A DNA stretch of 64,000 bases from Alphaproteobacteria bacterium (GTDB lineage: Bacteria; Pseudomonadota; Alphaproteobacteria; SP197): contig CBDAUZ010000001.1 of the NCBI GenBank assembly GCA_965200745.1, positions 370,896 to 434,895 on the forward strand, given 5' to 3'. The position numbers and the translations under genes are program-made. Each line of letters begins with the position of its first letter. Position 1 is the stretch's first letter. Below are positions 8,928 to 31,318 of this stretch, one piece after another. The notes beneath the pieces are model-generated. The model was given only the letters and a program-made list of their open reading frames with translations. It was not told where the DNA came from and made no database searches.

Positions 8928-9047
8928 CTGGCCGTGCCGCAATTCGGCACTTGTTAACGTACAAGCTGAATATGCAGCGTTAATTATGCGACATTACGTG
9001 ACAATTGAAACATTCCACAGCACTATGTTAGTCTTTCGGGACAACCT

Positions 9048-10253
9048 TTGGGAACAAACATGATCAGCGACAGGCTTGATCAGCTACGGGATTATCCGTT
9101 CAAACGCCTCGATGCCCTGGTGAAAGACATCCCGCTGCCCAATGGACACGATCACGCGTTACCCATGTATCTGGGTGAACCGCGTCATGGTGTTCCCGAT
9201 GTTTTGCAGCGTGTCCTTGACGGACGTCTCGATGGTTTCGGTCAGTATCCGCCCGTCGAAGGTACGCCGAGCTTGCGCCGTACGATCGTTGCGTGGCTGC
9301 AACGACGCTACGCGTTGCCGACCAGTCTGCTCGACGCGGACGACTGCATCATTCCGGTACACGGGACACGCGAGGGCCTGTTCATGATCGCGTTGGCCGC
9401 GGTGCCACGCTCGCGTTCCGGATCGACCCCCGCTGCGTTGATGCCCAATCCGTTCTACCAACCCTACAAGGGCGGTGCTGTTGCGGCCGGAGCGGAACCG
9501 GTCTGCCTGCCGTGCACGGCCGAAACAGGATTTCTTCCGGATCTCGATAGCCTCGATGCGACCCTGCTGTCGCGAACCGCTATCTTCTATCTCTGTTCGC
9601 CGTCGAATCCCCAGGGCGCGGTCGCAGACCGCGACTATCTCCGTCATGCGGTCAATCTCGCGCGGACATACGGGTTCCTTCTGGTGTCCGATGAGTGTTA
9701 CGCGGAGATCTACGATCGTACGCCACCGCCCGGCATTCTCCAGATCTGTGCGGAGGACGGCGATCTTTCGAATGTGGTCTGTTTCCACTCACTGTCGAAG
9801 CGTTCAAGCGTTCCCGGACTTCGCCATGGGTTTGCCGCTGGTGATCCGGTCTTCATGGAAGCGTTCCTGCGCCTGCGCCGCTATGCCGCGGCAGGTTGTC
9901 CGGCACTACATTTCAACGCAGCAGAAGAACTGTGGTCCGAGGAAACGCATGTCGAACGCAACAGGGCGCTCTACCGGAACAAGATAGACATTGCAGAGAG
10001 AATACTCGGGAACCGACTGGGGTTCTTTCGTCCACCGGGCGGATTCTTCCTGTGGCTTGATGCGGAAAACGGCGAGATGGCTGCACGGAAACTCTGGTCG
10101 GAAGCCGCCGTGAAGGTCCTGCCGGGAAAGTACCTGGCAACCGATATGCCGGACGGCTCCAACCCCGCAGACCGGTACATACGTGTTGCGCTTGTCTGCG
10201 ACGAGGAAACAACACGCGAAGGCCTGTCACGCATTGCGGATACACTCACGTGA
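9048..10253 (+). CDS. PLP-dependent class I/II aminotransferase (DapC/AlaC-like)
   Basis: N-terminal 'LRDYPFKRLDAL' is typical of this aminotransferase group. The start may instead be MISDRL at 9060. Confidence 0.7.
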   Translation: MGTNMISDRLDQLRDYPFKRLDALVKDIPLPNGHDHALPMYLGEPRHGVPDVLQRVLDGRLDGFGQYPPVEGTPSLRRTIVAWLQRRYALPTSLLDADDCIIPVHGTREGLFMIALAAVPRSRSGSTPAALMPNPFYQPYKGGAVAAGAEPVCLPCTAETGFLPDLDSLDATLLSRTAIFYLCSPSNPQGAVADRDYLRHAVNLARTYGFLLVSDECYAEIYDRTPPPGILQICAEDGDLSNVVCFHSLSKRSSVPGLRHGFAAGDPVFMEAFLRLRRYAAAGCPALHFNAAEELWSEETHVERNRALYRNKIDIAERILGNRLGFFRPPGGFFLWLDAENGEMAARKLWSEAAVKVLPGKYLATDMPDGSNPADRYIRVALVCDEETTREGLSRIADTLT

Positions 10254-10317: not shown

Positions 10318-12717
10318 ATGGCGGTAAGAAGCGCGACATCAACTTCTCCACAACTGTTCCGGACAACCGCTTTCGACTGGTTGCGAAATGGGGTTTCGGT
10401 GCTCGTTGGTATCGCATGCCTGGCGGTCGCCTGCTGGCTCGCCGTCGCGTTGGCGACATACAGTTCCGGCGATCCGTCCATCAATCACGCGACATCGGCC
10501 ACGCCCGAGAACGTTGCCGGTGTTGCGGGTGCCTACGTCGCGGACGTGTCACTGACCTGGGCGGGACTTGCCGCCTTGCTTCCGGCATTCGTCCTGATCG
10601 GATGGGCGCATGCACTGATCAGATTTCGCAAGCTGACCAGACCGCTGCTGCGTGTTTTCTGCCTTGTGATCTCGTTCGTCCTGCTCATGCCTGTCCTGGC
10701 GAACCTGTGGCCTGATGTCGAGGACATGCCTGCCGGCGCCGGCGGGCTCGGTGGCATCCTCGTCCTTGATATGCTGGCAGTCTGGATCGACAGCTACGAA
10801 CTGTCATTGTCATGGTTGGTCACCGCACTTGTTGCAATGAGCATGTTGACGTTTCCCGTTGCTGCCGCGATGTCATTCAGCGGCGTTTTTCATGGAGTCG
10901 GTGGCGCTGTCTCAAGGATGATCAGAAAACGTCCGGCATTGCGCCGAAGGCTTGTTCCGGTCCGATTCCGAATTCGCCGCTTTGGACTCAGGCGTTTCAG
11001 CTTGCGCCTTCCGCCATTTCTGCAAAGGGTTCGTTCGGGGCAGTTCAGGCGCAGATCCCGTTCAACCGAAAACGAACCGCGAGTCATGACGGGCAGTCCT
11101 CCCAAGGCACCCGGCAGGAAAAGAAAGGCCACGAAGAAAACCGGCACTGCAGCACGGTCAAAGGCCGATGCAACGTCAACACGGCAGGCTCAGGAGAAAA
11201 AGTACACCTTTCCGCCAACCGATCTCCTTGAAGCAACAAAACGCAGCAGCCGTACAAGCGTCTCCCAGCGGGAACTTGAGGAACAGGCGGAACAACTTCA
11301 GACAGTGCTTTCGGACTTCGGAATTCGCGGTGAAATTGTCAACGCCAGACCCGGTCCTGTTGTCACGCGTTTCGACCTTGAACCCGACGCGGGGATCCGG
11401 GCGAACAGGATCATCGCACTCTCGGATGACATTGCACGGAGCATGTCGGCCGTATCAGCCCGTGTTGCCATCGTCACCGGCAGCAAGCTCATGGGCATCG
11501 AGTTGCCCAAACGCGAACGGGAGCTGGTGCTGCTGCGTGAATTGCTGGAGAGCCCCGCATTCACGTCAAAGAATCGACATCTGCCCGTGATCCTTGGCAA
11601 GGATATTTCCGGTGCGCCTGTCATCGAGGATCTGGTTGACATGCCGCATCTCCTCATCGCCGGCACGACGGGCTCGGGCAAGTCCGTCGGCGTTAACGCG
11701 ATGATCCTGTCACTCCTGTTCCGGCTGAGTCCGAAGGAATGCCGCCTGATCCTGATCGATCCCAAGATGCTTGAACTGTCCGTCTATGACGACATTCCGC
11801 ACCTTCTCGCACCCGTCGTGACCGAACCCGCCAAGGCCGTGCAGGCCCTGAACTGGGTCGTGCGGGAGATGGAGCGGCGATACAGATCAATGCAGAAGGT
11901 CAACGCGCGCAATATCACCGTGTTCAACGAGAAGGTCAGGGCGGCGCTGGCCCGCAACAAACCGCTCATCCGGCAGGTCCAGGTCGGATTCCATCCTGAA
12001 ACCGGGGAACCCGTTCACGAACAGGATGTCATTGCAACAGAAACCTTGCCCTACATCGTCGTGGTTGTTGACGAGATGGCAGACCTCATGCTCGTTGCTG
12101 GACGCGAAATCGAGGGGGCGGTCCAGCGTCTGGCGCAAATGGCGCGTGCCGCCGGAATACACATTATCATGGCGACGCAACGTCCCTCGGTCGACGTAAT
12201 CACCGGAACCATCAAGGCCAACTTCCCCTCTCGAATCTCGTTCCATGTGGCGTCGAAGACCGACAGTCGCACGATTTTCAACGAGCACGGCGCGGAACAG
12301 TTGCTGGGCAAGGGCGACATGCTGTTTGCTTACAGCGGCCGCAAGATGACACGCATCCACGGACCGTTCGTCAGTGACGAGGAAGTCACGCGCGTCGCGG
12401 AAAATTTGCGACAGCAAGGCAAACCCGACTACCTCGAGGACATCACTGAAGAACACACTGATGTTCAGGGTGGAACACTCGGACTGCTGGACAAGCCAAC
12501 CGTGGACAAGGATCAGGGACTCTATGATCAGGCTGTCTATCTGGTCACGACAGAAAAGAAGGCATCAACCAGTTTCGTGCAGCGGCATCTGAAGATCGGT
12601 TACAATCGTGCTGCCAATATTGTTGAGCGGATGGAACGGGAAGGTGTCGTAAGTTCACCAAACCACGTCAACAAACGCGAGGTTCTTGCACCGCCGCCGC
12701 CGGGTCCACCAGGATGA
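10318..12717 (+). CDS. ftsK: DNA translocase FtsK
   Basis: 799 aa. N-terminal TM region, Pro/Arg-rich linker, Walker A 'GTTGSGKS' and a C-terminal gamma/winged-helix region 'SFVQRHLKIGYNRAANIVERME'. Confidence 0.9.
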   Translation: MAVRSATSTSPQLFRTTAFDWLRNGVSVLVGIACLAVACWLAVALATYSSGDPSINHATSATPENVAGVAGAYVADVSLTWAGLAALLPAFVLIGWAHALIRFRKLTRPLLRVFCLVISFVLLMPVLANLWPDVEDMPAGAGGLGGILVLDMLAVWIDSYELSLSWLVTALVAMSMLTFPVAAAMSFSGVFHGVGGAVSRMIRKRPALRRRLVPVRFRIRRFGLRRFSLRLPPFLQRVRSGQFRRRSRSTENEPRVMTGSPPKAPGRKRKATKKTGTAARSKADATSTRQAQEKKYTFPPTDLLEATKRSSRTSVSQRELEEQAEQLQTVLSDFGIRGEIVNARPGPVVTRFDLEPDAGIRANRIIALSDDIARSMSAVSARVAIVTGSKLMGIELPKRERELVLLRELLESPAFTSKNRHLPVILGKDISGAPVIEDLVDMPHLLIAGTTGSGKSVGVNAMILSLLFRLSPKECRLILIDPKMLELSVYDDIPHLLAPVVTEPAKAVQALNWVVREMERRYRSMQKVNARNITVFNEKVRAALARNKPLIRQVQVGFHPETGEPVHEQDVIATETLPYIVVVVDEMADLMLVAGREIEGAVQRLAQMARAAGIHIIMATQRPSVDVITGTIKANFPSRISFHVASKTDSRTIFNEHGAEQLLGKGDMLFAYSGRKMTRIHGPFVSDEEVTRVAENLRQQGKPDYLEDITEEHTDVQGGTLGLLDKPTVDKDQGLYDQAVYLVTTEKKASTSFVQRHLKIGYNRAANIVERMEREGVVSSPNHVNKREVLAPPPPGPPG

Positions 12718-16934: not shown

Positions 16935-19859
16935 TCAGGCTGATTGGCGCTCCACGAAGCGACGGAACAAGCCGTCGGCCTTGCTGAGCTGTTCGAAGGT
17001 GCCCTCCTGAACGACCTTTCCAGCCTGAAGTACGTAGATACGGCTCGCCTGGCGGATCGTGGATATGCGATGGGCGATGACGATGCGCGTCGCACTGGAA
17101 TTCTCGATTCCGGCCATGGTCAGTTCCTGGCTCTTCGCGTCAAGCCAGCTGGTTGCTTCGTCGAGAAAGAGAATGCTCGGCCTGCGCACCAGTGCCGCTG
17201 CGATGCGGACGCGCTGCACCTGCCCGCCGGAAAACGTCGAGCCGCTGCCGCCCATCGGGGTGTGCATGCCCATCGGCATGGCGGCGATGTCATCGGCAAT
17301 TGCGGCCTGCCGCGCGGCTCGCCAAGCGTCGTCAAGGGTAAGGCTTTCGTCCACGCCGTTGATATTGTCCATCACCGTGCCTGCCAGCAGACTGTTCTCC
17401 TGCATCACGACGCCGATCTGGCGGCGCAGGAAATCGGCGTTGATGCGCGCAAGATCGTGGCCGTCATAGTAGACGGTTCCTGAGGACGGCGTCTCGAGAC
17501 CGAGCGCCAGGCGCATGAGCGTGCTCTTTCCCGAACCCGACTCGCCGACGACAGCGATGAACTCGCCCGGCTTGGTGCGGATCGTCACTTCGTCGAGGAC
17601 GAGAGGGCCGGATTCCGAATAGCGGAAGCTGACACGATCGAAGACGATTTCGCCGTTGATTTGCGGTGCCGCTCCGTCATGTGTTCCGCCCTCCGGCAGC
17701 GCCGCCAGGATTTCCCGCGATTGCTCGCCGGCCGGGATCAGTGCGGCGATGGCCTCGAACGAAAGGCTGAAGATGACGAGTGAGCCAACGAACATCATCG
17801 ATGCAGAGTAGATGACCATGAAATCCCCGACCGACAGCTGGGCCCGGTCCTGGGTGAGCGCCACGGCGATGAAGGCCGCGGTCCACAGCGCCGGAATCGA
17901 AATGGCGAGCGCGGTCAGGTGTTCGTTCAGCTTCGAGATGTCGATCTCGGCCAGTTTCTGCGTGCGATATTGTCTTGCCCATTTCGCATAGGCGGAGGCC
18001 TCGGCCCCACTCGCCCGCAGCTTGCCGATCCCGTTGATGAGCTGGAACAGGTGACCGGCAAGCGTGCGTGCAGCTGCAAAGCGGCGCCGGTGATACCCGA
18101 CCTGTACCATGCCTATGGCGACTGTCAGCCCGAGCGTCGCGATACCGAGGCACAGGCTCAGCCACCCCAGCGCGGTGTTGTAGACGAAGACCAGGGCGAA
18201 AGTCGGCATCAGGAACAGCACGGACAGGATGGCACCGGACGCCAGGGCGGACAATTGGTCGCGCATGACCAGGAATGTCATGGCCCGGGTCGCGAGGTCG
18301 CCGACAGTGAAACTCCGAAAGAACACCGGGCGCAGCCGCAGGAGGCGGTCCCAGACAGCCGCCACGATGCGCGTGGAGGCGCGTCCCTCGAGCCGCATCA
18401 TCGCGGTCCCGCGCAACATGTTGAGCAGACCCGCCAGGACGGCCGCCACCACCACCAGCCCTGTGAGGTGGAGCAGCCGGTCGGGTTCTCCCGAAGGGGC
18501 CAGGATATCGGCCAGGAGGCCGAGGGCCACTGCCGGAAACAGCAGGACGGCGCCGGCCGCGATTCCCGCCAGCGTCAACTGGCCGAGGTCTCCTGCCTGA
18601 TTGCGGCTGGCGAGGCGCAGCAGGTCGCGGGCGCCGGCCGGCCGGTCAGTCGGCAGGGGCCGGTAGACCATGACGGCATCGTCGATGAACTGGTCCGCGG
18701 TGCCTGCCGTCACCCGCCGGGCCTCGCCCGATACCGGATCGATGCTGCGATACCACCCGGACCGCCCGGGAAGAAGCGCGACGGGCTGTCCGTCATCCTT
18801 GCGCCAGGCGATCATCGCCCCGCTGTCTCCGTACCACCAGCGGTCTTCTTCCTTGAGACGCACCTGCCTGCCATTGAGACCGGATGCCAGCAGGACGGAG
18901 CGGAGGCTGTCCTTCGCCTCTTGTCTGTCCGGGACCCGGATGGCGATGTCCTCATAGGCAGCGACGATCCGCAATGCCGCAAGCGGCCCGGAATCGGCGT
19001 GGTCCGGAACAAATCCGTCGATGACAGAGTACAACCGGCTTCTGGACGCCGCCCTGTCCGTTCTCCGCCATGCCCCCCTGTTGCGCTGAAGGTTGGCTTC
19101 GTCGGCGAGAAGCAGCATGCGGTTGAAGGCTTCGGCGGCGAGTGCAAGCCTGTGAAACTCCGGCACATGCAGCGTCAGGAGATCGGCGGGGTCCATGTCC
19201 GAGGTCGCTTGGGCCTCGACCTCCACGCGTGCTGGAAGCATAGCCCAGATTCCGGGGCTGACAGGCATCAGGGCCGATGGCCCCGGACCCGATTCTTCCG
19301 TTCCGAGGTATGCGGCATCGGCGGCATCGCCACGAATCCACGCCACTCCTCGCTCGGAGGAGACCGTGCCCGATGCGGAGGTGGTCGATCCTGCCGTCAG
19401 CAGGACATCGGCACGCGGCCGGGGATCGATGTCTCGCACCACCGCTTCCGCAAATTCACGGATCCATGCGTCGACCTGTCCGGCCAGGGCATGCCCTGCC
19501 GCTCCTTCGGGCAAGCGCTCCAGCAGGTCCGTGATCCCGATCGGGCGAAGCGCAGAACCAGGCAAGCCCTTGGCCAGCAGCCCCAGGCCGCTGTTGCCGT
19601 CGCTCTGACCGAACAGGAGGCGCCCGCGCTGCGCCCGGATCATGTGCTTGTACATCGATGCGGTGCGGTCTTCCTGGAACTCGACCGCAAAGACATCGAC
19701 CGTGCCGCTCTCCACGATCCACACGGTGGTGGAGTCATCGAGGCGCAGCGGCTGGTTGCCGGCGCAGGGAATCGGTTCCCCGAAAAAGTCCGCAAAATCG
19801 ACGCCGTCGACGGGTTGTTCCGGCATGCGGGCGCGATCAGGAGGAATGGATGAGTTCAT
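16935..19859 (-). CDS. NHLM-type bacteriocin-system ABC transporter, ATP-binding/permease with N-terminal cNMP-binding-like domain
   Basis: 974 aa with N-terminal beta-roll/cNMP-like domain, six TM helices and an ABC NBD (Walker A 'GESGSGKST', signature 'FSGGQ'). Overlaps the upstream C39-ABC gene by 23 bp. Confidence 0.75.
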   Translation of the reverse strand: MNSSIPPDRARMPEQPVDGVDFADFFGEPIPCAGNQPLRLDDSTTVWIVESGTVDVFAVEFQEDRTASMYKHMIRAQRGRLLFGQSDGNSGLGLLAKGLPGSALRPIGITDLLERLPEGAAGHALAGQVDAWIREFAEAVVRDIDPRPRADVLLTAGSTTSASGTVSSERGVAWIRGDAADAAYLGTEESGPGPSALMPVSPGIWAMLPARVEVEAQATSDMDPADLLTLHVPEFHRLALAAEAFNRMLLLADEANLQRNRGAWRRTDRAASRSRLYSVIDGFVPDHADSGPLAALRIVAAYEDIAIRVPDRQEAKDSLRSVLLASGLNGRQVRLKEEDRWWYGDSGAMIAWRKDDGQPVALLPGRSGWYRSIDPVSGEARRVTAGTADQFIDDAVMVYRPLPTDRPAGARDLLRLASRNQAGDLGQLTLAGIAAGAVLLFPAVALGLLADILAPSGEPDRLLHLTGLVVVAAVLAGLLNMLRGTAMMRLEGRASTRIVAAVWDRLLRLRPVFFRSFTVGDLATRAMTFLVMRDQLSALASGAILSVLFLMPTFALVFVYNTALGWLSLCLGIATLGLTVAIGMVQVGYHRRRFAAARTLAGHLFQLINGIGKLRASGAEASAYAKWARQYRTQKLAEIDISKLNEHLTALAISIPALWTAAFIAVALTQDRAQLSVGDFMVIYSASMMFVGSLVIFSLSFEAIAALIPAGEQSREILAALPEGGTHDGAAPQINGEIVFDRVSFRYSESGPLVLDEVTIRTKPGEFIAVVGESGSGKSTLMRLALGLETPSSGTVYYDGHDLARINADFLRRQIGVVMQENSLLAGTVMDNINGVDESLTLDDAWRAARQAAIADDIAAMPMGMHTPMGGSGSTFSGGQVQRVRIAAALVRRPSILFLDEATSWLDAKSQELTMAGIENSSATRIVIAHRISTIRQASRIYVLQAGKVVQEGTFEQLSKADGLFRRFVERQSA

Positions 19860-22032
19860 GGTACAGGCCCGTCTCCTCCTTCATCAGCTCGTCATGTGTT
19901 CCGCGCTGAACCTCCTTTCCGTTGTTGAGCACCACGATCAGGTCGCTGTCGCGAATCGTGCTCAGCCTGTGCGCGACGATCAGACAGGTACAGCCCCGCC
20001 GGCGTATCGCGTCGTCGATCTCCAGTTCGCTGACGGTATCCAGGGCGCTGGTGGCCTCGTCGAGGATCAGGACCGACGGGCTGTTCACCAGGGCGCGGGC
20101 GATCTCCAGACGCTGACGCTGCCCGCCGCTGAAATTGCGTCCGCCTTCCTCCACCGCCGAGGCATAGCCCAGCGGGCGGGATGCGATTGCGTGGTGGATC
20201 GCCGCGTCACGCGCTGCCGCGACGATGGCCGAATCCGGCGTCGTCGGATTCCACAAGGTAAGGTTCTCGTTCACGGTACCGGCGAACAGGACGACGTTCT
20301 GGTCCACCATGGCCACCGAACTGGTCAGGATCTCGCGGGGGATCTCGTGTCGAAGATGGCCATCGAACCGGACCTCGCCCGACCAGGGCTGGTAGACACC
20401 GGCCACCAGGAGGGACAATGTCGACTTGCCGGAACCGCTCGGTCCCACGATCGCCACACGCTGCCCCGGTTCGACCGTCAGGTTGAAGTCCTCGAGCAGT
20501 GGCGGCCGGTTCTTCTGGAATCCGAATGTGATGTTGCGCAACTCCACACGCCCCACGAGTTGCAGGCGCTGGTTCAGGGTCACGAGCCTGTCGGTCTGCG
20601 CCGCTTCTTCCCCGCCGAACTCCCTGTCAGGCTCCGCATCCATGACGTCATCAAGCCTGCGCAGGTTCGCGGACATGGTCTCCAGCAGGTCGCTCAACTG
20701 GGCGAATCGTCCCACGGGACGCAGGAAGTTCATGGCCAGGATGTACGAGGCGGTCAGTGCGCCGAGCGTCATGTCTCCCGACATGACCCGCCAGCCGCCA
20801 AGTCCGATGACAAGAGCGGAACCGAGGACGAGCGCTGCCGGCGGCAAGGATTCAACGACATGGCCAAGTTCGACGAATTTCTGCCGGGCATTCAGTTCGC
20901 GTGCCTGATAGGCGGTGAACCGCGAGAAGAAATTGCCCCCCTGGGCGGTCGCCTGCAGCGAATCGATGATGCTGAGCCCGCCCATGCCGAGGCCTGACAT
21001 CATGCCCTGCTCGTGCAACAGGACATGATTGTGGTCCGTGCGCAGATAGGTGATGTATCGCATAGCCAACAGACACATCACGCCCAGAAGGCCGACTGCG
21101 ACGCCCGTCAGCGAATCGAGGACAAGTATCAGGATCAGGAATGCGAGGCTCATCACCAGCTCGATCGCGATGCCTGTCAACTGGATCGAGCCGATCAGGG
21201 CGATCTGATCGATCAATTGCATGCGCGAGGCCACGTCGCCTGCGTGGCGGCGGGTAAAGAAGTCGATGGGCAGCCGGACCAGCCGGCTCAGATAGCGGTC
21301 CGACTGCTGAACGGACAGGACAAGGGAGATCTTTCGCAGAGCGCGCATCTGGAGCCATGCCAGCATGTAGGATGCGACACCGGCGGCGATCGCAAGCCCC
21401 ATCACCAGGCCGGCCCAGCCCTCTTGGGCGTCGCCGACGACATGGTCGACGAAAACGGCCAGCAGGATGGGCAGGGCAAGCCCCGGTATTACCAGGAGGA
21501 GGCCGCAGAGGATGGCAAAGGCGAGGGCCGGACGCACGGACCTCAGCCATGGCCAGAACTGCTTGAGGATGCCGGGATGCGCTCCGCCGGGCTCGAAGGA
21601 CTCGCCCGGGGGCAATTCCAGCGTGACGCCCGTAAAGCATCGGTCGAACTCGTCCTCGCCGATGGTGCGGCGCCCCACCGCCGGGTCATTGATGAAAAAG
21701 CGGCCGCGTCCGATGCCCTCGAGAACGACAAAGTGCCGGAACTCCCAGAACAGGATGAGAGGCATCTTCATGGCCCTGAGTTGATTGATTTCCCGTCGCC
21801 ATGCCGAAGGCTGCAGACCGTATCTGCGCGCCGCCCTGAGGATATCGGCGGCATTCGCGCCGTCTCGGCCGACGCAGCAGGCCTCGCGAAGGTCCTGAAG
21901 CGGAACCCACTTTCCCAGATAGGCAAGGACGATGCCGAGGCTGGCCGCGCCGCATTCCGTGGCCTCGAGCTGCAGGATGACGGGTGTCTTGACGCGCCGG
22001 CCGGGAGTGGATTTGCGTCCGAACAGGTTCAT
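19837..22032 (-). CDS. NHLM-type bacteriocin ABC transporter with N-terminal C39 peptidase domain
   Basis: C39 motif 'LQLEATECGAASLGIVLAYLG', then TMD and NBD ('GPSGSGKST', 'FSGGQRQR'). This is the protein type that cleaves GG-leaders. Confidence 0.85.
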   Translation of the reverse strand: MNLFGRKSTPGRRVKTPVILQLEATECGAASLGIVLAYLGKWVPLQDLREACCVGRDGANAADILRAARRYGLQPSAWRREINQLRAMKMPLILFWEFRHFVVLEGIGRGRFFINDPAVGRRTIGEDEFDRCFTGVTLELPPGESFEPGGAHPGILKQFWPWLRSVRPALAFAILCGLLLVIPGLALPILLAVFVDHVVGDAQEGWAGLVMGLAIAAGVASYMLAWLQMRALRKISLVLSVQQSDRYLSRLVRLPIDFFTRRHAGDVASRMQLIDQIALIGSIQLTGIAIELVMSLAFLILILVLDSLTGVAVGLLGVMCLLAMRYITYLRTDHNHVLLHEQGMMSGLGMGGLSIIDSLQATAQGGNFFSRFTAYQARELNARQKFVELGHVVESLPPAALVLGSALVIGLGGWRVMSGDMTLGALTASYILAMNFLRPVGRFAQLSDLLETMSANLRRLDDVMDAEPDREFGGEEAAQTDRLVTLNQRLQLVGRVELRNITFGFQKNRPPLLEDFNLTVEPGQRVAIVGPSGSGKSTLSLLVAGVYQPWSGEVRFDGHLRHEIPREILTSSVAMVDQNVVLFAGTVNENLTLWNPTTPDSAIVAAARDAAIHHAIASRPLGYASAVEEGGRNFSGGQRQRLEIARALVNSPSVLILDEATSALDTVSELEIDDAIRRRGCTCLIVAHRLSTIRDSDLIVVLNNGKEVQRGTHDELMKEETGLYHELIHSS

Positions 22033-22925
22033 TGCCGTGGCGCCGACTCCGTGTCGGCCAGGAGGTCCAGCAGTGTTGCAGTTTCCACGATGATGCGGAC
22101 CCGGCAGGGCATGGCGTCCGACAGTGGCATGTCCGGTTCCTGGAGCAGGTTCAGGCGCACCATGGTCATGGCGCCCTGTCCGTGCGTGCCGCCGCCTTCC
22201 GAGAGAAGGCGAGTAAACCAGGCGGGCGGCGCAGCCGGCTCGGGAGCGACCATCACGACCTGGCCAGGCAGCGGCTGTTCGTCCGTCAAACCACCGACAA
22301 AGACCTGCGCCTTCATTCCCTTGCCGAGTTCTCGCGCCTCGGCAGGAGGAAGATAGGCGACGACCTCCACCCTGCCGCTTTCACCCATGCGCAGATCCGC
22401 CAGCGGCGTGCCGACGGCGACGGCCTGCCCCACATGAAGATGAAGTGCCGACACCACTCCCGCATAGGGCGCAAGGACCGCTCCCTCCCCGCGGCGTTGT
22501 GTCAGCCTCGCGAGTTCCTGCCGCGCCGCCGCCAGGCGTTCGTCGGTCCCGGCTTCGCGTTCGAGCACCGTCACATAGGCCAGCTGCGAGGCCAGCTGCG
22601 CCTCCAGTTCAGGCGACAGGACATGTGCGATCGGTTCACCCTTGGCAACGCCGTCCTTCACACCGACCGGAACATCCGTAACGACGCCGACTGCGCCGGC
22701 CTGCACGGTGTAGCGCTCGCCCGGATACAGGATCAGGCCTTCCGCGATCAGGGTCCGGTCCAGACTGCCGAATGCCGACCAGGAGAAAGCGGCGATGAGC
22801 GCAACAGCAAAACTGATCCGGATGATCCATTCATGGGGGGCCGTCACGCAGGCAAGGTCGTCCATGGGGTCCGGCCTGGATTGCCTCAGGAGGGCGCGTT
22901 CCCGAAAAATCCCTGGAGATAACAT
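22029..22925 (-). CDS. HlyD-family secretion adaptor (NHLM system)
   Basis: Single N-terminal TM, coiled-coil and a beta-barrel-like C-terminus. 4-bp overlap with the C39-ABC start. It is the first gene of the minus-strand operon. Confidence 0.7.
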   Translation of the reverse strand: MLSPGIFRERALLRQSRPDPMDDLACVTAPHEWIIRISFAVALIAAFSWSAFGSLDRTLIAEGLILYPGERYTVQAGAVGVVTDVPVGVKDGVAKGEPIAHVLSPELEAQLASQLAYVTVLEREAGTDERLAAARQELARLTQRRGEGAVLAPYAGVVSALHLHVGQAVAVGTPLADLRMGESGRVEVVAYLPPAEARELGKGMKAQVFVGGLTDEQPLPGQVVMVAPEPAAPPAWFTRLLSEGGGTHGQGAMTMVRLNLLQEPDMPLSDAMPCRVRIIVETATLLDLLADTESAPRQ

Positions 22926-23214
22926 TATCGGACCGACCGGCGACCTTGCTTCGAAGCTAGCCTAGGTGATGAAGCCCGGCGCGGCAACCAAGCGAAACAA
23001 TGCCGCGCTCGAGGGGCCACGTGAATGAAGGCTCTGCATGGCACGGCGGCCGCCGGCGCCGTCGGCAATACGGCTTTCGTTCCGGTATCGCTGGCTGACT
23101 CTTCCCCGAGGCCCGAGCGGCCTGACATCACGCAAGGCTTGGCGAAGGGTGATGCCTGTTGATATGATGATTCGCCCGCATGGCCGCAGGCTTCCCGCCA
23201 GCACATCGATATCA

Positions 23215-24148
23215 GAGTATGAAACATAAGTCGTTGATTTATTTGTTATTTGTTATCATGCGGTTGCTTCACGCGCCACGCGCCTGACAAGAAATCGACA
23301 GGCGGCCAATTGCGTCCAGGCCAAGGCATTGTCAGTGTGGCGCTCGTAATCCTTCGACAAGCGACGGCATCGGCCCATCCAGGCAAAGGTCCGCTCCACG
23401 ACCCACCGGCGGGGCAACACCGTGAAACCCTTGGTATCCTTCGGTTTTTCCACAATCTCGAGGATGTCTGGCAGGCCCTGTTCCCGGATCTCCTTGCGAA
23501 GTTTCGGTCCCGCATAGCCACCATCGGCATACAGTTTGGAGATCGTCGGCACCGTCGCCAACAGCTGTATGATAACCTCCAGGGCAGCGTCCCTGTCCTG
23601 GACGTCAGCCGGGTGAACCATCATGACAATCGGGCTGCCTAGCGCGTCCACGACAATGTGCCGCTTGCGGCCCTTGATCCTCTTGCCCGCGTCATAGCCA
23701 CAGGGACCGCCACTCTCCGTGGTCTTCACCGACTGGCTGTCGATCACGGCCATGCGCGGGCTCCGCAGAGCGTCCCGATAAGCACCGCACCCGATCCCGC
23801 AAGTGCTGCAGGACCTTGTCTGCGACGCCACCCGTAGAAATAGTTCTGGACCGTCGAAAATGGTGGATATTCACCGGGAAGCGCCCGCCACTGGCAGCCC
23901 GTGCTGAGAATGTACTGAATGGCGTCGAACACCGACCGCAGATCGGTCTTGCGCGGACGACCCATCTTGCCCTGCTTGGGCAGCTGCGGTCCGATGATAG
24001 CCCATTGTGCGTCCGTGAGATTGTTTTGCCGATGGTCGTCTGATCGCTTATAACGCCTGTGAGTGGTCTCGGTCCCCTCCAGATTGGGAATCGAGATCGA
24101 TCTAGTTTACCACATCTTGCGAGACCACTCGACATATGGATCAAACTC
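23215..24148 (-). mobile_element. IS5-family (IS427/IS1031-like) insertion sequence, copy 1
   Basis: 934 bp. Imperfect IRs GAGTTTGATCCATATGTCG / GAGTATGAAACATAAGTCG. Perfect 3-bp direct repeat TCA at 23212-23214 and 24149-24151. Carries orfB (23256..23831, 191 aa, DDE transposase). Its orfA lacks a start codon because of a 12-bp deletion relative to copy 2. Confidence 0.8.
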
Positions 24149-24175
24149 TCAGCGGTTCTGGCGACCTGACGGGTC

Positions 24176-25075
24176 ATGACACGGCCGCCACGCCGTTCAA
24201 CGAAACGGGGCCGGATCATGCGTGGAATGACAAGTACCCGGGATAGACCGCCGGGATCCGTTGACGGCGTAACACGGGTGACCTCGTCCCTCGAATGGAC
24301 TGCGCTGGCCGCAATTGTCCTGGCCATGATCGCCGTGTCCCTGTGGTCGGCTTTCGGAAGCCTGGACCGAAACGTGACGGTCGAGGGAGCCATCCTGCGG
24401 GGGGGAGAACGTCACGCCGTCCTGTCCGGGACCGCGGGCACGGTCGCCGAAGTGCTCGCAGGTGCGAACGACACGGTGGTGCAAGGCGCCCCCATCGCAC
24501 GGCTGTATCAGCCGGAGCTGGAGGCGCGGATCAGCGGGTTGCGGTCGCGTATCGACCGGTTGGAGCAGGCCGGCGATGCTGATGAAGGTTCCGTGACCGC
24601 GGCACGCCTCGAGCTTGCCGGGTTGACCGCGCGCCGGGTCAGCGGCGAGATCCTGGCGCCTTTTGCCGGTACCGTGACGGCAATGCATGTCGCCGTGGGA
24701 GAACCCCTGAAGGTCGGTACGCCGGTCTCGGAATTGCGACGCGCCGGAGGCGATTCCCTGGAAGTGGTGATCTTCGTTCCGGGCGACAAGGCGGAGAGGC
24801 TGCGCGAGGGCATGCGGGCGCAGGTCGAGATCGACAGCTCCGTCGCGGGGGCCGGCGTCGCCGCTGAAATCGTCGAGATTGCGACCGAGAGCGGCCCTCC
24901 ACCGGCCTGGTTCTCGCGGATTTCGGGAGTTGACGGAGCGGGCGCGACCTTGCCGCCGAGACACAGGATCCGGCTGGCCCTGCTTGATGAGCTGGACAAT
25001 CCGCCGGCCGACGCCGCGCCATGCCGGGTCCATATCATTCTCGAGACCGTCTCCTTGTTCGAACTGGTGACCTGA
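24176..25075 (+). CDS. HlyD-family secretion adaptor, orphan paralog of 22029..22925
   Basis: 299 aa, same architecture as the operon HlyD and clearly alignable to it ('LWSAFGSLDR', 'PPPAWF', 'APCRVHIILET'). Starts 25 bp after IS copy 1. A 7-9 bp stem-loop lies at 25066-25088. Confidence 0.7.
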   Translation: MTRPPRRSTKRGRIMRGMTSTRDRPPGSVDGVTRVTSSLEWTALAAIVLAMIAVSLWSAFGSLDRNVTVEGAILRGGERHAVLSGTAGTVAEVLAGANDTVVQGAPIARLYQPELEARISGLRSRIDRLEQAGDADEGSVTAARLELAGLTARRVSGEILAPFAGTVTAMHVAVGEPLKVGTPVSELRRAGGDSLEVVIFVPGDKAERLREGMRAQVEIDSSVAGAGVAAEIVEIATESGPPPAWFSRISGVDGAGATLPPRHRIRLALLDELDNPPADAAPCRVHIILETVSLFELVT

Positions 25076-26984
25076 AATCCTGGTCACCCAGTGCTTGTCG
25101 AGCCGACAATGGGTGATGGCGGCGACATGTTCGGCATTGTTGTCGAGCACATCCGCGATCCGCTGCTGCATCGCCAGTGTGGGAGAGCGCCAAGAATTCT
25201 GAATCTGGGCGAAGCGGGGCGCCAGGTTGTCGCTGGTGGCGTCGCCGGTGGCCAGAAGGGCCTCGTTCAGCGTCCAGGTTCCCGTATGGGCAAGCATGGC
25301 CTCCTTGGTGTATTTCGTCGTCGTGTACATCAGGCACAGGGCGTCATTGGCGCCCGGCGCCCGCGCCACCGTGTGGGCCGTGGCCGGCCCCGGTGCGCCC
25401 ACGCTTTTCCAGGTCTCAGAGCTTGATCCATATGTCGAGTGGTCTCGCAAGATGTGGTAAACCAGATCGATTTTTAACCACAATCTGGAGGATACCATGC
25501 CTTGGACCGAGACCACTCACAGGCGTTATAAGCGATCAGACGACCATCGGCAAAACAATCTCACGGACGCACAATGGGCTATCATCGGACCGCAGCTGCC
25601 CAAGCAGGGCAAGATGGGTCGTCCGCGCAAGACCGATCTGCGGTCGGTGTTCGACGCCATTCAGTACATTCTCAGCACGGGCTGCCAGTGGCGGGCGCTT
25701 CCCGGTGAATATCCACCATTTTCGACGGTCCAGAACTATTTCTACGGGTGGCGTCGCAGACAAGGTCCTGCAGCACTTGCGGGATCGGGTGCGGTGCTTA
25801 TCGGGACGCTCTGCGGAGCCCGCGCATGGCCGTGATCGACAGCCAGTCGGTGAAGACCACGGAGAGTGGCGGTCCCTGTGGCTATGACGCGGGCAAGAGG
25901 ATCAAGGGCCGCAAGCGGCACATTGTCGTGGACGCGCTAGGCAGCCCGATTGTCATGATGGTTCACCCGGCTGACGTCCAGGACAGGGACGCTGCCCTGG
26001 AGGTTATCATACAGCTGTTGGCGACGGTGCCGACGATCTCCAAACTGTATGCCGATGGTGGCTATGCGGGACCGAAACTTCGCAAGGAGATCCGGGAACA
26101 GGGCCTGCCAGACATCCTCGAGATTGTGGAAAAACCGAAGGATACCAAGGGTTTCACGGTGTTGCCCCGCCGGTGGGTCGTGGAGCGGACCTTTGCCTGG
26201 ATGGGCCGATGCCGTCGCTTGTCGAAGGATTACGAGCGCCACACTGACAATGCCTTGGCCTGGACGCAATTGGCCGCCTGTCGATTTCTTGTCAGGCGCG
26301 TGGCGCGTGAAGCAACCGCATGATAACAAATAACAAATAAATCAACGACTTATGTTTCATACTCTCAGGCTCATCACAGATGAAGGTGTAGATGCAGCTC
26401 CAGTAGCTTCCGGAATGGGTGTCCCACACGCAGGTGTTGGTGCGCAGTGTTCCGAAAGAGGGATGAAACGATATCGCCGCGTCCATGTCGTCGTAGTAGC
26501 CCTTGGCGGCGTGGACTGGCTTCGAGCCGCACACCTTCTCCGCGGGCTCGCCCATGAACTTCAGGCTCCCGGCGATATCGTGGCACTCCATCGCCGCCTT
26601 GGCGGCCAGTATCCCGGCCAGGGCGGAGATGCCGAGGGCGGAATGCGGATCGGTGTGGCCGGCCGCGGCATGATGGGCGCCGTCCCTGAGCTTGCGCCAG
26701 GGCACGCGGTCCTGGTTGTTGCCGGGCACGGCGTCATACTCGGGATAGGATCCGATGGTCGGCCCGCTGCCGTTCGACCAGCGCGCGCAGAAGGCGGAAG
26801 GCATGCCGCCGGAGCCTTCCTCGACCTCGATTCTCTCCCGCTTCAGGCAGTCCACATACCATGCCGCCGACCGGTATTCGCGCCACGCCGGTTCGTGAAA
26901 GACCCAGATCACGCGATGCCAGTCCGAGAGTGTCCGGCGGTTGGCTTCGACCCAGTCGATGGCCGTCTGCTTTTCAGGTGTCAT
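25076..26984 (-). pseudogene. M20-family amidohydrolase (AbgB-like), disrupted by IS copy 2 and 3'-truncated
   Basis: The 5' part (26984→26368) aligns to the AbgB N-terminal half ('GSYPEYDAVPG', 'KFMGEPAEK…KGYYDDMDAAISFHP'). Reading resumes in frame on the far side of the IS (25415→~25076, 'ETWKSVGAPG…AITHCRLDKHW') once one TSD copy is removed. Only about 320 of the ~480 expected residues remain, because the hlyD paralog lies on the opposite strand. Confidence 0.6.
25419..26364 (+). mobile_element. IS5-family (IS427/IS1031-like) insertion sequence, copy 2, intact
   Basis: 946 bp. orfA at 25497..25835 (112 aa) and orfB at 25748..26323 (191 aa) overlap out of frame, which suggests a frameshift-fusion transposase. 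3-bp TSD TCA at 25416-18 and 26365-67. Outside the deletion it is nucleotide-identical to copy 1. Confidence 0.85.
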
Positions 26985-27365
26985 GTTTGCCGCTCCGCAT
27001 GCATCAGCCGGCCCGCGCGCCTCCCTCGAGCCTATCACAGGCGGCCCTGTGAGGCACCCAAGGCCATCCCTGACATCGACCAGTCCCGGCCAGGTGCCAT
27101 GCTTGAGTCTGTTACAGGCGGCCGAATTGCGCCGACACGCCCTGTCTTCGCAATGCGTGGGTTGCGCCCGCCATGCCGGGAGGTCGAATCCCGCGCAGTT
27201 CGCCTTGTTTGTTCCGCCGGGCCCGGGGTGATGCCGGTGCGCATGGCCGGTCCGGGCCTGCAGCCCCTGATCGGCTATACCACGCAAGGCTCCGCTTCCG
27301 TTGTGGCGGTGATGCCGAAACCGCCGGTATCCGATCTGTAAAGGACGGCGGCGGGTCTCTCCGGG

Positions 27366-28448
27366 CTAGGAAGGGCCGCCGGCTTCGGATGGTGGAGGGG
27401 AAGTACGCGCTGCTGTTTGGTGGTCCGGTCGGCAAGGTGCTGCCACATCGGCTGTCGCGTGCAAGTCGAGATAGGCCTTTGCGCGCCGATCCGCGCCGTC
27501 GAGCGTGATCTTGAGATGGCTGACGCAGCGGTGGGCGTTGAGGAGTACGTGCATGTCGGAGAAGAGTTTGCTGCCGGGAAACCTTCGCAGCCCCTCGGCC
27601 TTGGCCGGCAGGCAGAGATCCTGCGCCACCAGCCAGTCGAGCATGTCCTCCATCCGGTCCTTCTCCGGCACCCATTCGAGTCCGAGCGGAGAACCGAGCC
27701 CCTCCGGTCCGACATCCAGACCGAGCATACGGCGGGACGACAGCGGTTCCAAGGCGGACGCGATCCGTTCGACCTCCGGCAGGGAGCCCGGCCAGCCGAT
27801 GCGCTCCAGAAAGCGCATCGCCGCCGCCATTGTCGCGAACGTGCAGACGAGGCGCAGACCGCGGCGCAGGCGCGCCGGAAACGTCCCGGCGTGGATCACA
27901 CGCGCCTCTTCGCCGGGAAGGAGGGAAAAGATCCGCTCGACCGTCCGGCGCTCGCCGGCGTCCTCCTCCATTCCTGCCGAGCGGGCGAGCGCCGACAGCA
28001 TGTCGCCTGGATTGCGGAACGCCTTACCGGCGGCGTCGCCGGCCGCCGTCAGGAAGAGTCCGGGTCTCCGGTCCGGTCCGGATTCAATCAGGTCGTATTC
28101 GAGAATCGGCAGGCCGACGATACGGGAAAGACAGGAACCGGGCTCTTCGAGTTGTGCGAGAAGCCAGGCCAGCGCCGCGGCCTGCGGGTCGCTTCCCTTT
28201 GCTTCGCTCCCGCGTCGGCGAAAGTGTGCCGATACGCTCGAACCGGGAACGATGGCGACGGCAAGGTCAGCCGCCGGTTCCGCCTCGCCCAGGCGGATTT
28301 CAAGCCCGAACGGGAAAATCGCCGTCGCCAGCGGCAATGTGGAGGCGCACCGGAGAACACGCTCCAAACCGGAGCCCGCAACCAGCGACTGCGGGATCTC
28401 CGGCCGGAGCGTGTCTAGAAACCAGCCGAGCGATGACCTGTTCGTCAA
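27366..28448 (-). CDS. Hypothetical protein (360 aa), family unknown; immediately downstream of the NHLP precursor
   Basis: TTG start. GC3 is high and the composition is Ala/Leu/Glu/Gly-rich and protein-like, whereas the competing plus-strand ORFs are Ser/Arg/Pro-rich. No recognisable catalytic motif. Confidence 0.5.
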   Translation of the reverse strand: MTNRSSLGWFLDTLRPEIPQSLVAGSGLERVLRCASTLPLATAIFPFGLEIRLGEAEPAADLAVAIVPGSSVSAHFRRRGSEAKGSDPQAAALAWLLAQLEEPGSCLSRIVGLPILEYDLIESGPDRRPGLFLTAAGDAAGKAFRNPGDMLSALARSAGMEEDAGERRTVERIFSLLPGEEARVIHAGTFPARLRRGLRLVCTFATMAAAMRFLERIGWPGSLPEVERIASALEPLSSRRMLGLDVGPEGLGSPLGLEWVPEKDRMEDMLDWLVAQDLCLPAKAEGLRRFPGSKLFSDMHVLLNAHRCVSHLKITLDGADRRAKAYLDLHATADVAAPCRPDHQTAARTSPPPSEAGGPS

Positions 28449-28504: not shown

Positions 28505-28789
28505 CTACCAAATATTTATTCGTGATGTAAAACTACCTCCCCCCCCCGAGAAGAAGCCTCCGCTGACTTGCGCGAGGTCGCTTTCGGAGATCATGGGGGA
28601 AGGCGGGAGCACAATGTGTACGTGCTCTGCCGATTGTTCATGCACCGAAAGCGACAAGCTGACTGGAATGGATACATCGAACTCGCTTTCGATCGTGCCG
28701 CGCGGATCGTCGAGCAGTAACTGCCGGAACGCGTCGTCCGCGCCGGCCTTTTCGATCAATTGATCGCGCATCTCTGCCGCTGTCTTCAT
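28505..28789 (-). CDS. NHLP (nitrile-hydratase-leader peptide) family RiPP precursor
   Basis: Start MKTAAEMRDQL at 28789, with AAGGAG 9 nt upstream. The 78-aa leader '…AEHVHIVLPPSPMISESDLAQVSGG' is the NHLP signature and ends in a double-Gly. The 16-aa core FFSGGGGSFTSRINIW is partly encoded by a G9 run. Confidence 0.8.
   Translation of the reverse strand: MKTAAEMRDQLIEKAGADDAFRQLLLDDPRGTIESEFDVSIPVSLSLSVHEQSAEHVHIVLPPSPMISESDLAQVSGGFFSGGGGSFTSRINIW
28539..28547. repeat. Homopolymeric tract C9 (G9 on coding strand) inside the precursor core
   Basis: Read directly. Encodes S-G-G-G of the core (TCG GGG GGG GGA). Confidence 0.9.
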
Positions 28790-28980
28790 GATACTCGTCT
28801 CCTTGTCATTATGCCAACTGATACAGGCTTGACGCATTGCCAAAACACCTGCCGCACAGGCTTGCGCTGTCTAGATACGTAGGCATGTGCTTTCTTTTTT
28901 CAACCCTCGCAACCCGCCAGCCGCATTCGCGACGCGCTGTGGCAATGTTGCACCCTTGCGCTTGCATGTGCGATGGCGAT

Positions 28981-28988
28981 CCCCCCCC
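28981..28988. repeat. Homopolymeric tract C8 abutting the IS4-like left inverted repeat, in the precursor upstream region
   Basis: Read directly. It sits between the precursor 5' region and the IS4 IR, which begins at 28990. Confidence 0.9.
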
Positions 28989-28989
28989 G

Positions 28990-31318
28990 CCTATCATTGA
29001 ATCACACTTGATTCCGACATGAGTTTCTGCATGAAGCAGCATCATGCAGATTGGTTTGCGTCAGGTTTCAGCGGACACGATGTCGTGGCTGAGCAATGCA
29101 TGCAAGAGTGGTGATTGCTCGCGCGCATCACTGGCGCGCGAGATCTCCAGTCTCGAGGGCTGGCTTGACTATCGGGGTCGCCCGCGTTTGTCATCGGGGC
29201 ATCATGTTCTTCCGGTTCTGGCGCGCGAGCTTGGTGTTTCCTTGCCGCCCCGCGCGTTACCGGTTGGTGATGCCCATGTTCGTGCGGCGGTTGGTTATCC
29301 GGACCTGTCTCTTTCCTGCACGCTTGCGGCGCTTGGTGTTGTCTCGGTTGATCTGGTTTCGGAGGCGGATCGCCGTTGTTGGGATTCGATGATGGAGAGC
29401 CATCATCGTGGCGGTTGGCGGCGCGCACCGGGTGGTTTGCTGCGCTACTGGATCCGTTCATCGCGCTACGGGATTGTGGGCGGCTTGTGTTTCACCGCGG
29501 CGGGCCTGCAGCTCAAGCCGCGCGATGACTATATTGGCTGGTCCGCCGCCGCCCGCCTTGCCCACATACAAGAGGTTGTGTGCAACCATCGATTTCTGAT
29601 TTTGCCGTCGGTGCGGGTGCACCATCTGGCTTCGACGGCACTGCGCGCGGCAACCGTGCGCGTGGCCACGGACTGGCAGGAGCGCTATGGCGTGCGCCCC
29701 CTTCTGCTTTACACATTCGTTGCGCCGGACCATTCGGGTCTGAGCTACCGTGCGGCGGGCTGGGAATGCTGTCCGCAATGGACATCGGGTCGCCGTTCCG
29801 GGGTGCCGCGTGCGGTCTGGGTGAAGCCACTGGAGGCGGGCTGGAAGGCGGCACTCACCCACGAGGAGGCGCCTGTTCTCGGCCGTTCCAAACCGTTGTA
29901 TTGTGACGGTTCGTGGGCGCAACGCGAGTATGCCCGCAGTTCTTATCCCGACGGCCGCGTCAGGCGCCGGATTGCGGCGATGGGCAAGGCATGGCAGAAG
30001 AAACTGGGCGCGTCGATCCCGGTTATCTTTCCACGCCAGGCTGATCAGACGGCGGCCTATCGATTGCTGTCGAACGAGAATGTGACCATGAAGCATATCC
30101 TGGAGCCGCATTACGAGGCGACTGTTGACCGCTGCCGACAGGAGCGTCTGGTGCTGGCGATCCAGGACACGACGACCGTGAACTACGACACCTTGTCTGC
30201 GACGGGCGGCCTTGACGATCTCGGTGGCGGCGGCAAGGGGACAGCGGGTGTTCTCGCGCATTGCGGCATGGCGATCAACGGCGTTGGCCGTCCGCTGGGC
30301 CTGTTCACCATGGATGCGTCGTTCCGGCGGGCCGCCGGCAAGGACAGTGTCCGCTGGGTGGCGGGTCTTGACCGTGCGCGGGAACTTGCTGCGGCCTGTG
30401 CGCACACCCGGGTTGTCAGCGTCTGTGACCGCGAGGGCGATTTCTGGAGCCTGTTGTCGCACGCCAGAGACACCGGTGGCGAACTTCTGGTGCGTGCCAG
30501 CCGTTCGGCGCAGCGCCGGGTCGACACGCCTGCCGGTGCGGTTGACCTGTGGAGTCATGTCGAAGGGCTGGAACCGCTCGGGACACGGACCATCGATGTG
30601 CCGGGCTGCGGCGGACCCAACCGGCGCAAGGCGCGCACGGTCACGTTGACCCTGCGGTCTGCCCATGTTGATCTGATTGCGCCCAACGATGTCGGCGGTG
30701 ACCCCCTGTCCATGCTGGCGGTTTCGGCACGCGAGGATAACCCGAAAAAGAACACCACCCCCCTGAACTGGTTGCTGCTTTCCACCGTCGGTGAAGCCAA
30801 TCTCGACGGCGCGAAGGAACTCCTGCGCTTCTACGAACTGCGCTGGAGCATCGAACGCTTCTTCCATGCGCTCAAGACCGGAACACGCATCGAAGACCGG
30901 CGGCTCGACGAGGCCGACGACCTCAAGAAATGTCTGGCATTCGACGCCATCACGGCCTTCCGGGTGTGGGACCTCACCTGGCTGGCGCGGACCAGGGCCA
31001 ACGACCCGGCGCACGAATATGTGCCACCACACGACATCGAGATGTTGTGCGCCCTCACGCGCTTCTATCAACTCAAATCAGTGCGCGGACCGCCCGGACC
31101 GGACATGGATATCGAAAAGTTTGTCATCCTGACCGCCGGGCTGGCAGGCTTCCATCCATCAAAACGACAACCCTTGCCCGGCACACAGAAACTCTGGGAA
31201 GGAAGTCAGATCCTGACCCAATCCGTGACCGGATACCAGGCAATAAAAGAAATACTGGACCAATAACCCGCAAAGGAAACCATCCAGGAAACGGAATCAA
31301 GTGTGATGCATTGATAGG
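28990..31318 (+). mobile_element. IS4-family (Tn5/IS50-like) insertion sequence
   Basis: 27-bp imperfect terminal IRs (CCTATCATTGAATCACACTTGATTCCG / revcomp CCTATCAATGCATCACACTTGATTCCG, 25/27 match). No flanking direct repeat found. Confidence 0.75.
29044..31266 (+). CDS. IS4-family DDE transposase with about 290-aa N-terminal extension
   Basis: The C-terminal two-thirds aligns to Tn5 Tnp ('LAIQDTTTVNY', 'VCDREGDF', 'YELRWSIERFFHALKTG' YREK signature). The N-terminal ~290 aa are extra and possibly DUF4338-like. Confidence 0.8.
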   Translation: MQIGLRQVSADTMSWLSNACKSGDCSRASLAREISSLEGWLDYRGRPRLSSGHHVLPVLARELGVSLPPRALPVGDAHVRAAVGYPDLSLSCTLAALGVVSVDLVSEADRRCWDSMMESHHRGGWRRAPGGLLRYWIRSSRYGIVGGLCFTAAGLQLKPRDDYIGWSAAARLAHIQEVVCNHRFLILPSVRVHHLASTALRAATVRVATDWQERYGVRPLLLYTFVAPDHSGLSYRAAGWECCPQWTSGRRSGVPRAVWVKPLEAGWKAALTHEEAPVLGRSKPLYCDGSWAQREYARSSYPDGRVRRRIAAMGKAWQKKLGASIPVIFPRQADQTAAYRLLSNENVTMKHILEPHYEATVDRCRQERLVLAIQDTTTVNYDTLSATGGLDDLGGGGKGTAGVLAHCGMAINGVGRPLGLFTMDASFRRAAGKDSVRWVAGLDRARELAAACAHTRVVSVCDREGDFWSLLSHARDTGGELLVRASRSAQRRVDTPAGAVDLWSHVEGLEPLGTRTIDVPGCGGPNRRKARTVTLTLRSAHVDLIAPNDVGGDPLSMLAVSAREDNPKKNTTPLNWLLLSTVGEANLDGAKELLRFYELRWSIERFFHALKTGTRIEDRRLDEADDLKKCLAFDAITAFRVWDLTWLARTRANDPAHEYVPPHDIEMLCALTRFYQLKSVRGPPGPDMDIEKFVILTAGLAGFHPSKRQPLPGTQKLWEGSQILTQSVTGYQAIKEILDQ

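Follow-up and report, generated by a model that had tools for sequence, protein, structure and literature searches.

Two long G/C tracts at an NHLP-leader RiPP precursor gene as probable by-products of local mutational history

The two longest homopolymers of the window (the whole 64 kb stretch of DNA analysed here) are a G9 run inside a small RiPP precursor gene and a G8 run upstream of it, and both are probably by-products of the local mutational history rather than parts of an evolved switch. As runs of this length they are latent slippage hotspots, as any such run is. The initial annotation had gone further and regarded them as phase-variation substrates. The tracts are indeed real, rare and capable of changing the reading frame, and one of them lies beside an IS4-type element, but switching is not evident, and neither the consensus assemblies nor the protein records give any sign that G9 slips at an appreciable rate or is in use.

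Rarity of the tracts and consequences of a slip

Both tracts are present as first described. The first occupies positions 28539-28547 as C9 on the plus strand, and is thus read as G9 on the minus strand, where it falls within the core-coding region of the precursor gene. The second occupies positions 28981-28988 (C8 on the plus strand, G8 on the minus strand) and lies in native DNA, 192-199 nt upstream of the precursor ATG. They rank first and second by length among all homopolymers of the window, where the next longest has 7 units. G/C runs of 4, 5 and 6 occur 180, 24 and 8 times in the 64 kb, respectively, and runs of 7, 8 and 9 occur once each. When this observed decay was extrapolated with context models of order 2-4, the resulting analytic estimates were 0.13-0.33 G/C runs of at least 8 and 0.02-0.07 runs of at least 9 per 64 kb, which bears out, for this genome, the earlier statement that homopolymers of at least 8 are uncommon. 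An i.i.d. model gives approximately 5 runs of at least 8 per 64 kb; this value is so high because the model ignores the avoidance of runs in the genome. Because such runs are rarely expected here, the occurrence of two of them inside 450 bp is unusual, with a chance of roughly 1e-3 or less in a post hoc estimate. The concentration of two of the rarest features of the 64 kb inside 450 bp of one small gene is a counter-point to the by-product view.

The precursor gene (28505..28789, minus strand) encodes 94 amino acids followed by a stop codon. Its product matches TIGR03793 with 61.6 bits, above the curated cut-off of 50.9, and is therefore a member of the NHLP leader peptide family; the exact protein is on record (P0001). 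The leader ends with ...AQVSGG, and codons 79-94 (28508..28555, minus strand) encode the core, FFSGGGGSFTSRINIW. The double-glycine cleavage motif (...VSGG) occurs together with a co-located C39-peptidase ABC exporter, the combination that marks an NHLP precursor. The G9 tract is read as tcG GGG GGG GGa, and the minus-strand codons tcg ggg ggg gga ggt specify S-G-G-G-G, which confirms the placement of the run inside the core-coding part.

In silico translation of the slipped alleles reproduced the products predicted in the initial annotation: FFSGGEVVLHHE for G8 and FFSGGGR for G10. A change of one repeat unit in either direction thus alters the frame, and the C-terminal Trp is gone in both cases. 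Because both products lose the C-terminal Ile-Trp common to the paralogues, a slip by one unit most likely yields a non-substrate. In length, the two tracts also resemble those of contingency loci, which carry a hypermutable homopolymer of about 7-9 or more G/C in an ORF or promoter; here, G9 lies in the ORF and G8 upstream.

These properties are the basis for considering G9 as a contingency tract, in which slippage would toggle between an ON state (G9, or G6/G12) and an OFF state (G8 or G10, without Trp), and part of the population would make the peptide. The length of G9 within the hypermutable range of known systems, the frame effects and the rarity of the tracts in this genome all favour this reading. 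We nevertheless regard it as unlikely, in view of the tract lengths found in the sampled assemblies and the apparent origin of the run, which are described below.

Tract length in the sampled assemblies and the origin of G9

The locus was sampled in six assemblies, whose consensus sequences do not display minority length variants. Four Logan contigs derived from Illumina data of other runs (SRR33991069, SRR33991094, SRR33991097 and SRR33991093) have the same G9 tract as the window, and one of these contigs represents a different haplotype (SNP at 27680). At the consensus level, G9 was therefore found in 5/5 assemblies with the long core. In a collection of 15 billion proteins, none corresponding to G6, G8, G10 or G12 was found, and no slipped variant is present inside the 90% cluster of P0001. 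Contingency loci show polymorphism in tract length; in these consensus assemblies and protein records, we observed none. Uniform length across samples or strains had been named in advance as the outcome that would speak against phase variation, and at the consensus level this is the outcome obtained. The proposed comparison of strains for length heterogeneity at 28539-28547 likewise revealed none at this level, the only difference being a swap of the whole core. The phase variation deduced from the tracts is hence not supported by these data.

The same contigs bear on the possibility that errors of sequencing or assembly, such as miscalled homopolymers in long reads, account for the length of one tract or of both. 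Related records have long-read-style contig names and low coverage, and C8 is covered by no independent contig, its length being that of the window assembly; a record look-up found no protein for an ORF spanning C8. On the other hand, the four independent short-read contigs concur on the exact G9, as the recommended check for assembly error demanded, and an artefact at this tract was rejected. Elsewhere, the window and these contigs agree at 99.9-100%, and a G6 run at the homologous site of a paralogue indicates that the upstream tract is real sequence. An artefactual origin of either length is thus very unlikely.

The sixth assembly, a contig from SRR33991092 (L030), represents the same locus, as judged by window-specific SNPs, an exact copy of the 360-aa partner enzyme and the downstream sequence up to an IS5 copy. 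Its core is the 8-residue FISGRMIW, which is the same as the core of a paralogue, with G4 only, and it differs from the window by CACC for CATC at 13 nt past the stop codon. A de Bruijn chimera of paralogues was considered and rejected, since none of the three known copies has the SNPs of L030 in this combination over 26 nt. No k=31 path through these copies yields the L030 sequence, and it is therefore a real allele or haplotype. Positions 28505-28560 are polymorphic in the sampled community, with a 16-residue core containing G9 in one form and the 8-residue FISGRMIW in the other, on a haplotype that is otherwise the same. The polymorphism is therefore a core swap and not a change in tract length. 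It could be explained either by import of a patch or by gene conversion from a paralogue, in either direction.

A second locus in the same genome (L001; proteins P0002, P0015 and P0017 on the same 2.68-Mb contig) contains tandem duplicate precursor cassettes (L001 positions 8100-9850), whose cores are NFLRNVIW and FISGRMIW; a truncated enzyme copy of 185 aa follows them. Position 27903 and the upstream G tract delimit the homology of L001 to the window. Alignment of the three precursor cassettes gave approximately 95% identity over a stretch that starts 115 nt before the ATG, includes the leader and extends past the stop codon, and they diverge essentially only in the core.

Alignment of the window (TCGGGG-GGGGGAGGTAGTTTTACATCACGAATAAAT-ATTTGG) with the second L001 copy (TCGGGG-CGCATG-ATTTGG) delimits a 30-nt patch, GGGGGAGGTAGTTTTACATCACGAATAAAT (28514..28543, minus strand), which replaces the CGCATG of the short allele and the paralogue with a net gain of 24 nt, in frame. 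Positions 28547-28544 of the tract are the native G4 common to the paralogue and the short allele, whereas the patch contributes its first 5 bases at positions 28543-28539. The G9 run exists because the patch opens with G5 next to this native G4. In the patch, all nine codons in the stretch GGA to AAT have A or T in the third position, and the GC3 of these codons is 0.00, compared with 0.69 for the reference genes and 0.71 for the leader. This composition suggests that the patch is of recent or foreign origin; a search for a donor in the window and in all fetched loci gave none.

Retention of the tract in relatives, another property of contingency loci, was not observed: L030 and both paralogues have G4 at this site. 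That the alternative allele and the two paralogues lack G9, and that the patch looks young, argues against a contingency tract. In addition, the presence of two further paralogues makes OFF switching of this copy redundant, and in a bacterium with functional mismatch repair, slippage of a G9 run is far rarer than in Campylobacter or Neisseria. Taking these points together with the uniform length, we consider it improbable that G9 is a functional switch.

The preferred, by-product explanation of G9 would start from an ancestral-type core, FISGRMIW, in which a compositionally foreign 30-nt patch took the place of 6 nt, so that the G5 of the patch and the native G4 formed G9; we infer this direction of the core change. 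G9 would then be the in-frame state, which keeps the C-terminal Ile-Trp common to the paralogues. The Trp would be prenylated by the adjacent enzyme, and the C39 ABC exporter would cleave past the GG motif. With a slip by one unit, the Trp would be lost and this paralogue alone inactivated. As a counter-point to the by-product view, the preservation of an in-frame G9 could reflect selection for the ON state.

The run might also act at the level of RNA or peptide, as a hairpin that attenuates transcriptional read-through towards the enzyme gene or as a flexible GGGGS spacer, maintained by selection, in the core. The arms CUUCUUCUC and GGGGGGAGG can form a terminator-like hairpin that is followed by UAGUUUU. 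There are 5 terminator-like matches against 0.7 expected, of which 4/5 overlap on one hairpin, and the hairpin has a predicted energy of -10.5 kcal/mol (z = -2.3) and is missing in the short allele. At the peptide level, the family tolerates cores of 7-18 residues. However, the hairpin leans on G-U pairs, lies inside a translated ORF and has a weak U-tail, and its 111-nt context folds no better than shuffled sequences (z = +0.7). A comparable element was found in no relative. We therefore regard such a role as very unlikely.

The upstream tract and tracts in related loci

On the minus strand, the window reads ...GATAGG up to the end of the IS element and continues as C GGGGGGGG ATCGCC, whereas the paralogue reads ...CCC G C GGGGGG ATCGCC. 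The site in the paralogue is G-C-G6, not G8, and the upstream tract of the window corresponds to the paralogue's GCGGGGGG with one substitution. Because a single C-to-G change makes G8 from G-C-G6, no slippage is needed to explain it. In the by-product explanation, the native G-C-G6 would have become G8 by this change, and the IS4-type element would have inserted later, 1 nt off.

The IS4-type insertion sequence (28990..31318, plus strand) has 27-nt terminal inverted repeats (28990-29016 and 31292-31318; 93% complementary) and encodes a 740-aa transposase. The transposase matches NF033590 with 271 bits (cut-off 160), and this match, together with the flanking inverted repeats, places the element in the IS4 family. 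C8 does adjoin the end of the element, as had been noted, at a distance of 1 nt from the terminal inverted repeat. There is no target-site duplication, the left flank being CCCCCCCCG and the right flank AACATGGCC. An origin of G8 from the IS element or from a target duplication was rejected, since the tract is also present in the paralogue, which lacks the IS, and the two flanks differ. The transposase protein was not on record in a look-up. Its N-terminal ~290 aa (gene at 29044-31266, plus strand) matches Druantia DruA (PF14236, 70 bits), and this DruA-like domain precedes the Tn5-type DNA-binding and DDE domains.

The upstream cassette common to the three paralogues comprises 115 nt (28790..28904, minus strand), in which the promoter and the ribosome-binding site are presumed to lie. 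The G8 tract is located outside it, 77 nt beyond the common sequence, and the region around the tract is wholly absent from the first L001 copy. For these reasons, a role of G8 in promoter spacing, and any influence on the precursor promoter, would be unlikely, and G8 was rejected as a promoter-spacer element. Within the cassette, two Logan contigs (L002 and L003) open with an Illumina adapter joined to window positions 28842 and 28849, 53-60 nt upstream of the ATG; these junctions may represent defined fragment ends or RNA 5' ends.

Longer G/C tracts occur at related precursor-enzyme loci, although their lengths are uncertain because the records L009, L011 and L031 are low-coverage assemblies with long-read-style contig names. 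In L011, from an Alphaproteobacteria MAG, a C14 tract (6517-6530) splits the enzyme gene into two ORFs. A C6 tract would match the orthologue in L007, and C12 or C15 would be in frame; C14 reflects either an error in the homopolymer or a gene that is genuinely OFF or a pseudogene. Poly-C runs separate the -35 from the -10 element at precursor paralogues in L009 (C8 at 1344-1351 and C13 at 9515-9527) and in L031 (C13 at 9492-9504 and C14 at 11367-11380), while the promoters of sister paralogues consist of TTGCC(A/G), a mixed C/T-rich spacer and TATAAT. As read from these sequences, the layout is the classic promoter-spacer architecture of phase variation, at different paralogues in the two related contigs. 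These C13-C14 spacers and the C14 frameshift in an enzyme gene count in favour of a contingency tract, and the presence of far longer G/C tracts in functional positions is a further counter-point to the by-product view.

One may thus ask whether slippage is a recurrent production switch in NHLP-leader, Trp-core, prenyltransferase-associated peptides of environmental bacteria. The G9 of the window would then be a switch at the ORF level, the C8, C13 and C14 tracts of L009 and L031 would be transcriptional switches, and the C14 of L011 would be an OFF state. We consider this unlikely; the tracts of the relatives keep the idea alive at the family level and are without direct bearing on the tracts of the window. 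Among 17 JGI loci of the RiPP family, no long G/C tract was found in the modules, and the one G8 lies upstream in a terminator-like stem; a general enrichment of long G/C runs in the family is therefore not supported. A scan of a genome collection that does not include the window's own genome returned two relatives only, and a metagenome scan with the 26-nt leader end matched nothing. Shorter G runs were also observed, one G7 at the codons for the Gly-Gly cleavage site in the precursor of one relative (L007 9962-9968) and another G7 in a MAG labelled as Rhodobacter, within the ribosome-binding region of a degraded precursor (L006 9668-9674).

Partner enzyme, export genes and known systems

The gene directly downstream of the precursor (27366..28448, minus strand) encodes the 360-aa partner enzyme. 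It has no match in Pfam or NCBIfam and belongs to an unnamed family of 3879 representative clusters, and its sequence profiles retrieved no solved relative. The AlphaFold2 model (pLDDT 88, pTM 0.85) consists of repeated alpha-alpha-beta-beta units. In a Foldseek search of the PDB, the top matches were all ABBA, DMATS or cyanobactin prenyltransferases (probability 1.0, TM-scores 0.45-0.57), including CloQ, NphB/Orf2, EpzP, AmbP1, DMATS enzymes, LimF and PagF. The enzyme is thus predicted, with high confidence, to adopt the alpha-beta-beta-alpha barrel of the ABBA aromatic-prenyltransferase fold. The pairing of precursor and enzyme was found again in many loci, and all of the associated cores, of 7-18 residues, include a Trp. 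From this pattern, we infer that the adjacent enzyme, with its prenyltransferase fold, probably acts on the core Trp. A C-terminal extension of ~23 residues (27366-27440, minus strand) is predicted to be disordered (pLDDT <50) and is found in no homologue; the native 3' end of the enzyme gene may have been altered.

A set of NHLP bacteriocin export genes (16935..22925, minus strand) lies approximately 6 kb from the precursor, with IS5 copies interspersed. It encodes ABC2 (16935-19859), a C39-peptidase ABC1 (19837-22032) and an HlyD-type adaptor (22029-22925), all on the minus strand, and the genes appear intact. They correspond to TIGR03794, TIGR03796 and TIGR03797; the TIGR03796 match scores 877 bits (cut-off 853), and that of TIGR03797 is just under its cut-off (688 against 709). 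The IS5 pair at 23214-24152 and 25415-26365 is 97.8% identical and inverted, and flanks a second HlyD-like gene (24176-25075); a third copy at 56236-56984 is 89% identical. An M20-type amidohydrolase ORF (26292-27287), which matches its family model only at N-terminal positions 2-155 of 366, runs into the IS5 copy at 25415-26365 and appears truncated by it. A direct repeat of ~350 nt was found at 59952-60300 and 61198-61557 (85% identity). P0007 was not on record in a look-up.

A close biosynthetic parallel is PalX of Paenibacillus alvei, an NHLP-type precursor with the 8-residue core DNVRRFFW, whose terminal Trp is prenylated (PMC10853753). The format of this core resembles that of FISGRMIW and NFLRNVIW in the present genome. 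In contrast, PalQ is all-alpha and isoprene-synthase-like (PMC10853753), whereas the enzyme described here is predicted to have the ABBA fold. The precursor and the enzyme probably constitute a leader-dependent Trp-prenylating RiPP system that is distinct from PalQ, as far as the model indicates. The paralogous precursors, with leaders and flanks ~95% identical and unrelated cores, resemble the NHLP and Nif11 precursor families, whose leaders are conserved and whose cores are hypervariable (Haft et al. 2010, PMC2887384), and the nearby export genes are a further similarity. The present system differs in that its partner has an ABBA prenyltransferase fold and is not a lanthionine synthetase or cyclodehydratase.

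Precedent for a contingency tract in this kind of gene is provided by Neisseria napR (poly-G) and napC (poly-T), in which homopolymers occur in bacteriocin-like genes with GG leaders and length alleles are known across >10,000 isolates (PMC11798529). As in NapR/NapC, the homopolymer here lies within a small ORF for a double-glycine-leader peptide, and a change by one unit removes a functional part of the peptide. However, a single length was found here in 5/5 assemblies, the tract is missing from the sister allele, and the organism and the peptide class (an NHLP leader with a prenyltransferase-fold partner) are different. With the G/C contingency loci of Campylobacter, Neisseria and Haemophilus (PMC8355987), the window shares a run of 8-9 G/C, placed within a coding region or ahead of a gene, and a change of frame on slippage. 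It differs from these classical loci in that length polymorphism, conservation of the tract and a link to a promoter spacer are not seen, and in that the host is free-living, high-G+C and probably alphaproteobacterial.

In Propionibacterium acnes, variable G/C tracts track clades, and the authors favour slow accumulation over active switching (PMC4746626). The G+C content is similar (~60%) and nearly all of the P. acnes tracts are G/C; that study, however, surveyed 90 genomes across the species, compared with six assemblies of one locus here. The present case fits the P. acnes pattern better than the Neisseria pattern.

If the tract did switch, it would exemplify how a free-living bacterium turns a secreted modified peptide on and off stochastically, and would offer a simple route to a varied peptide repertoire; phase variation of RiPP production would be a novelty outside pathogens adapted to a host. 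On its own, however long, a homopolymer in a region that determines the product does not count as evidence of phase variation. On the present evidence, the two tracts are a curiosity of mutation, marking a core allele that is young and polymorphic within a precursor family of several copies. Of more practical value is their context, a large unnamed family with a prenyltransferase fold that is accompanied by NHLP precursors whose short cores always contain Trp.
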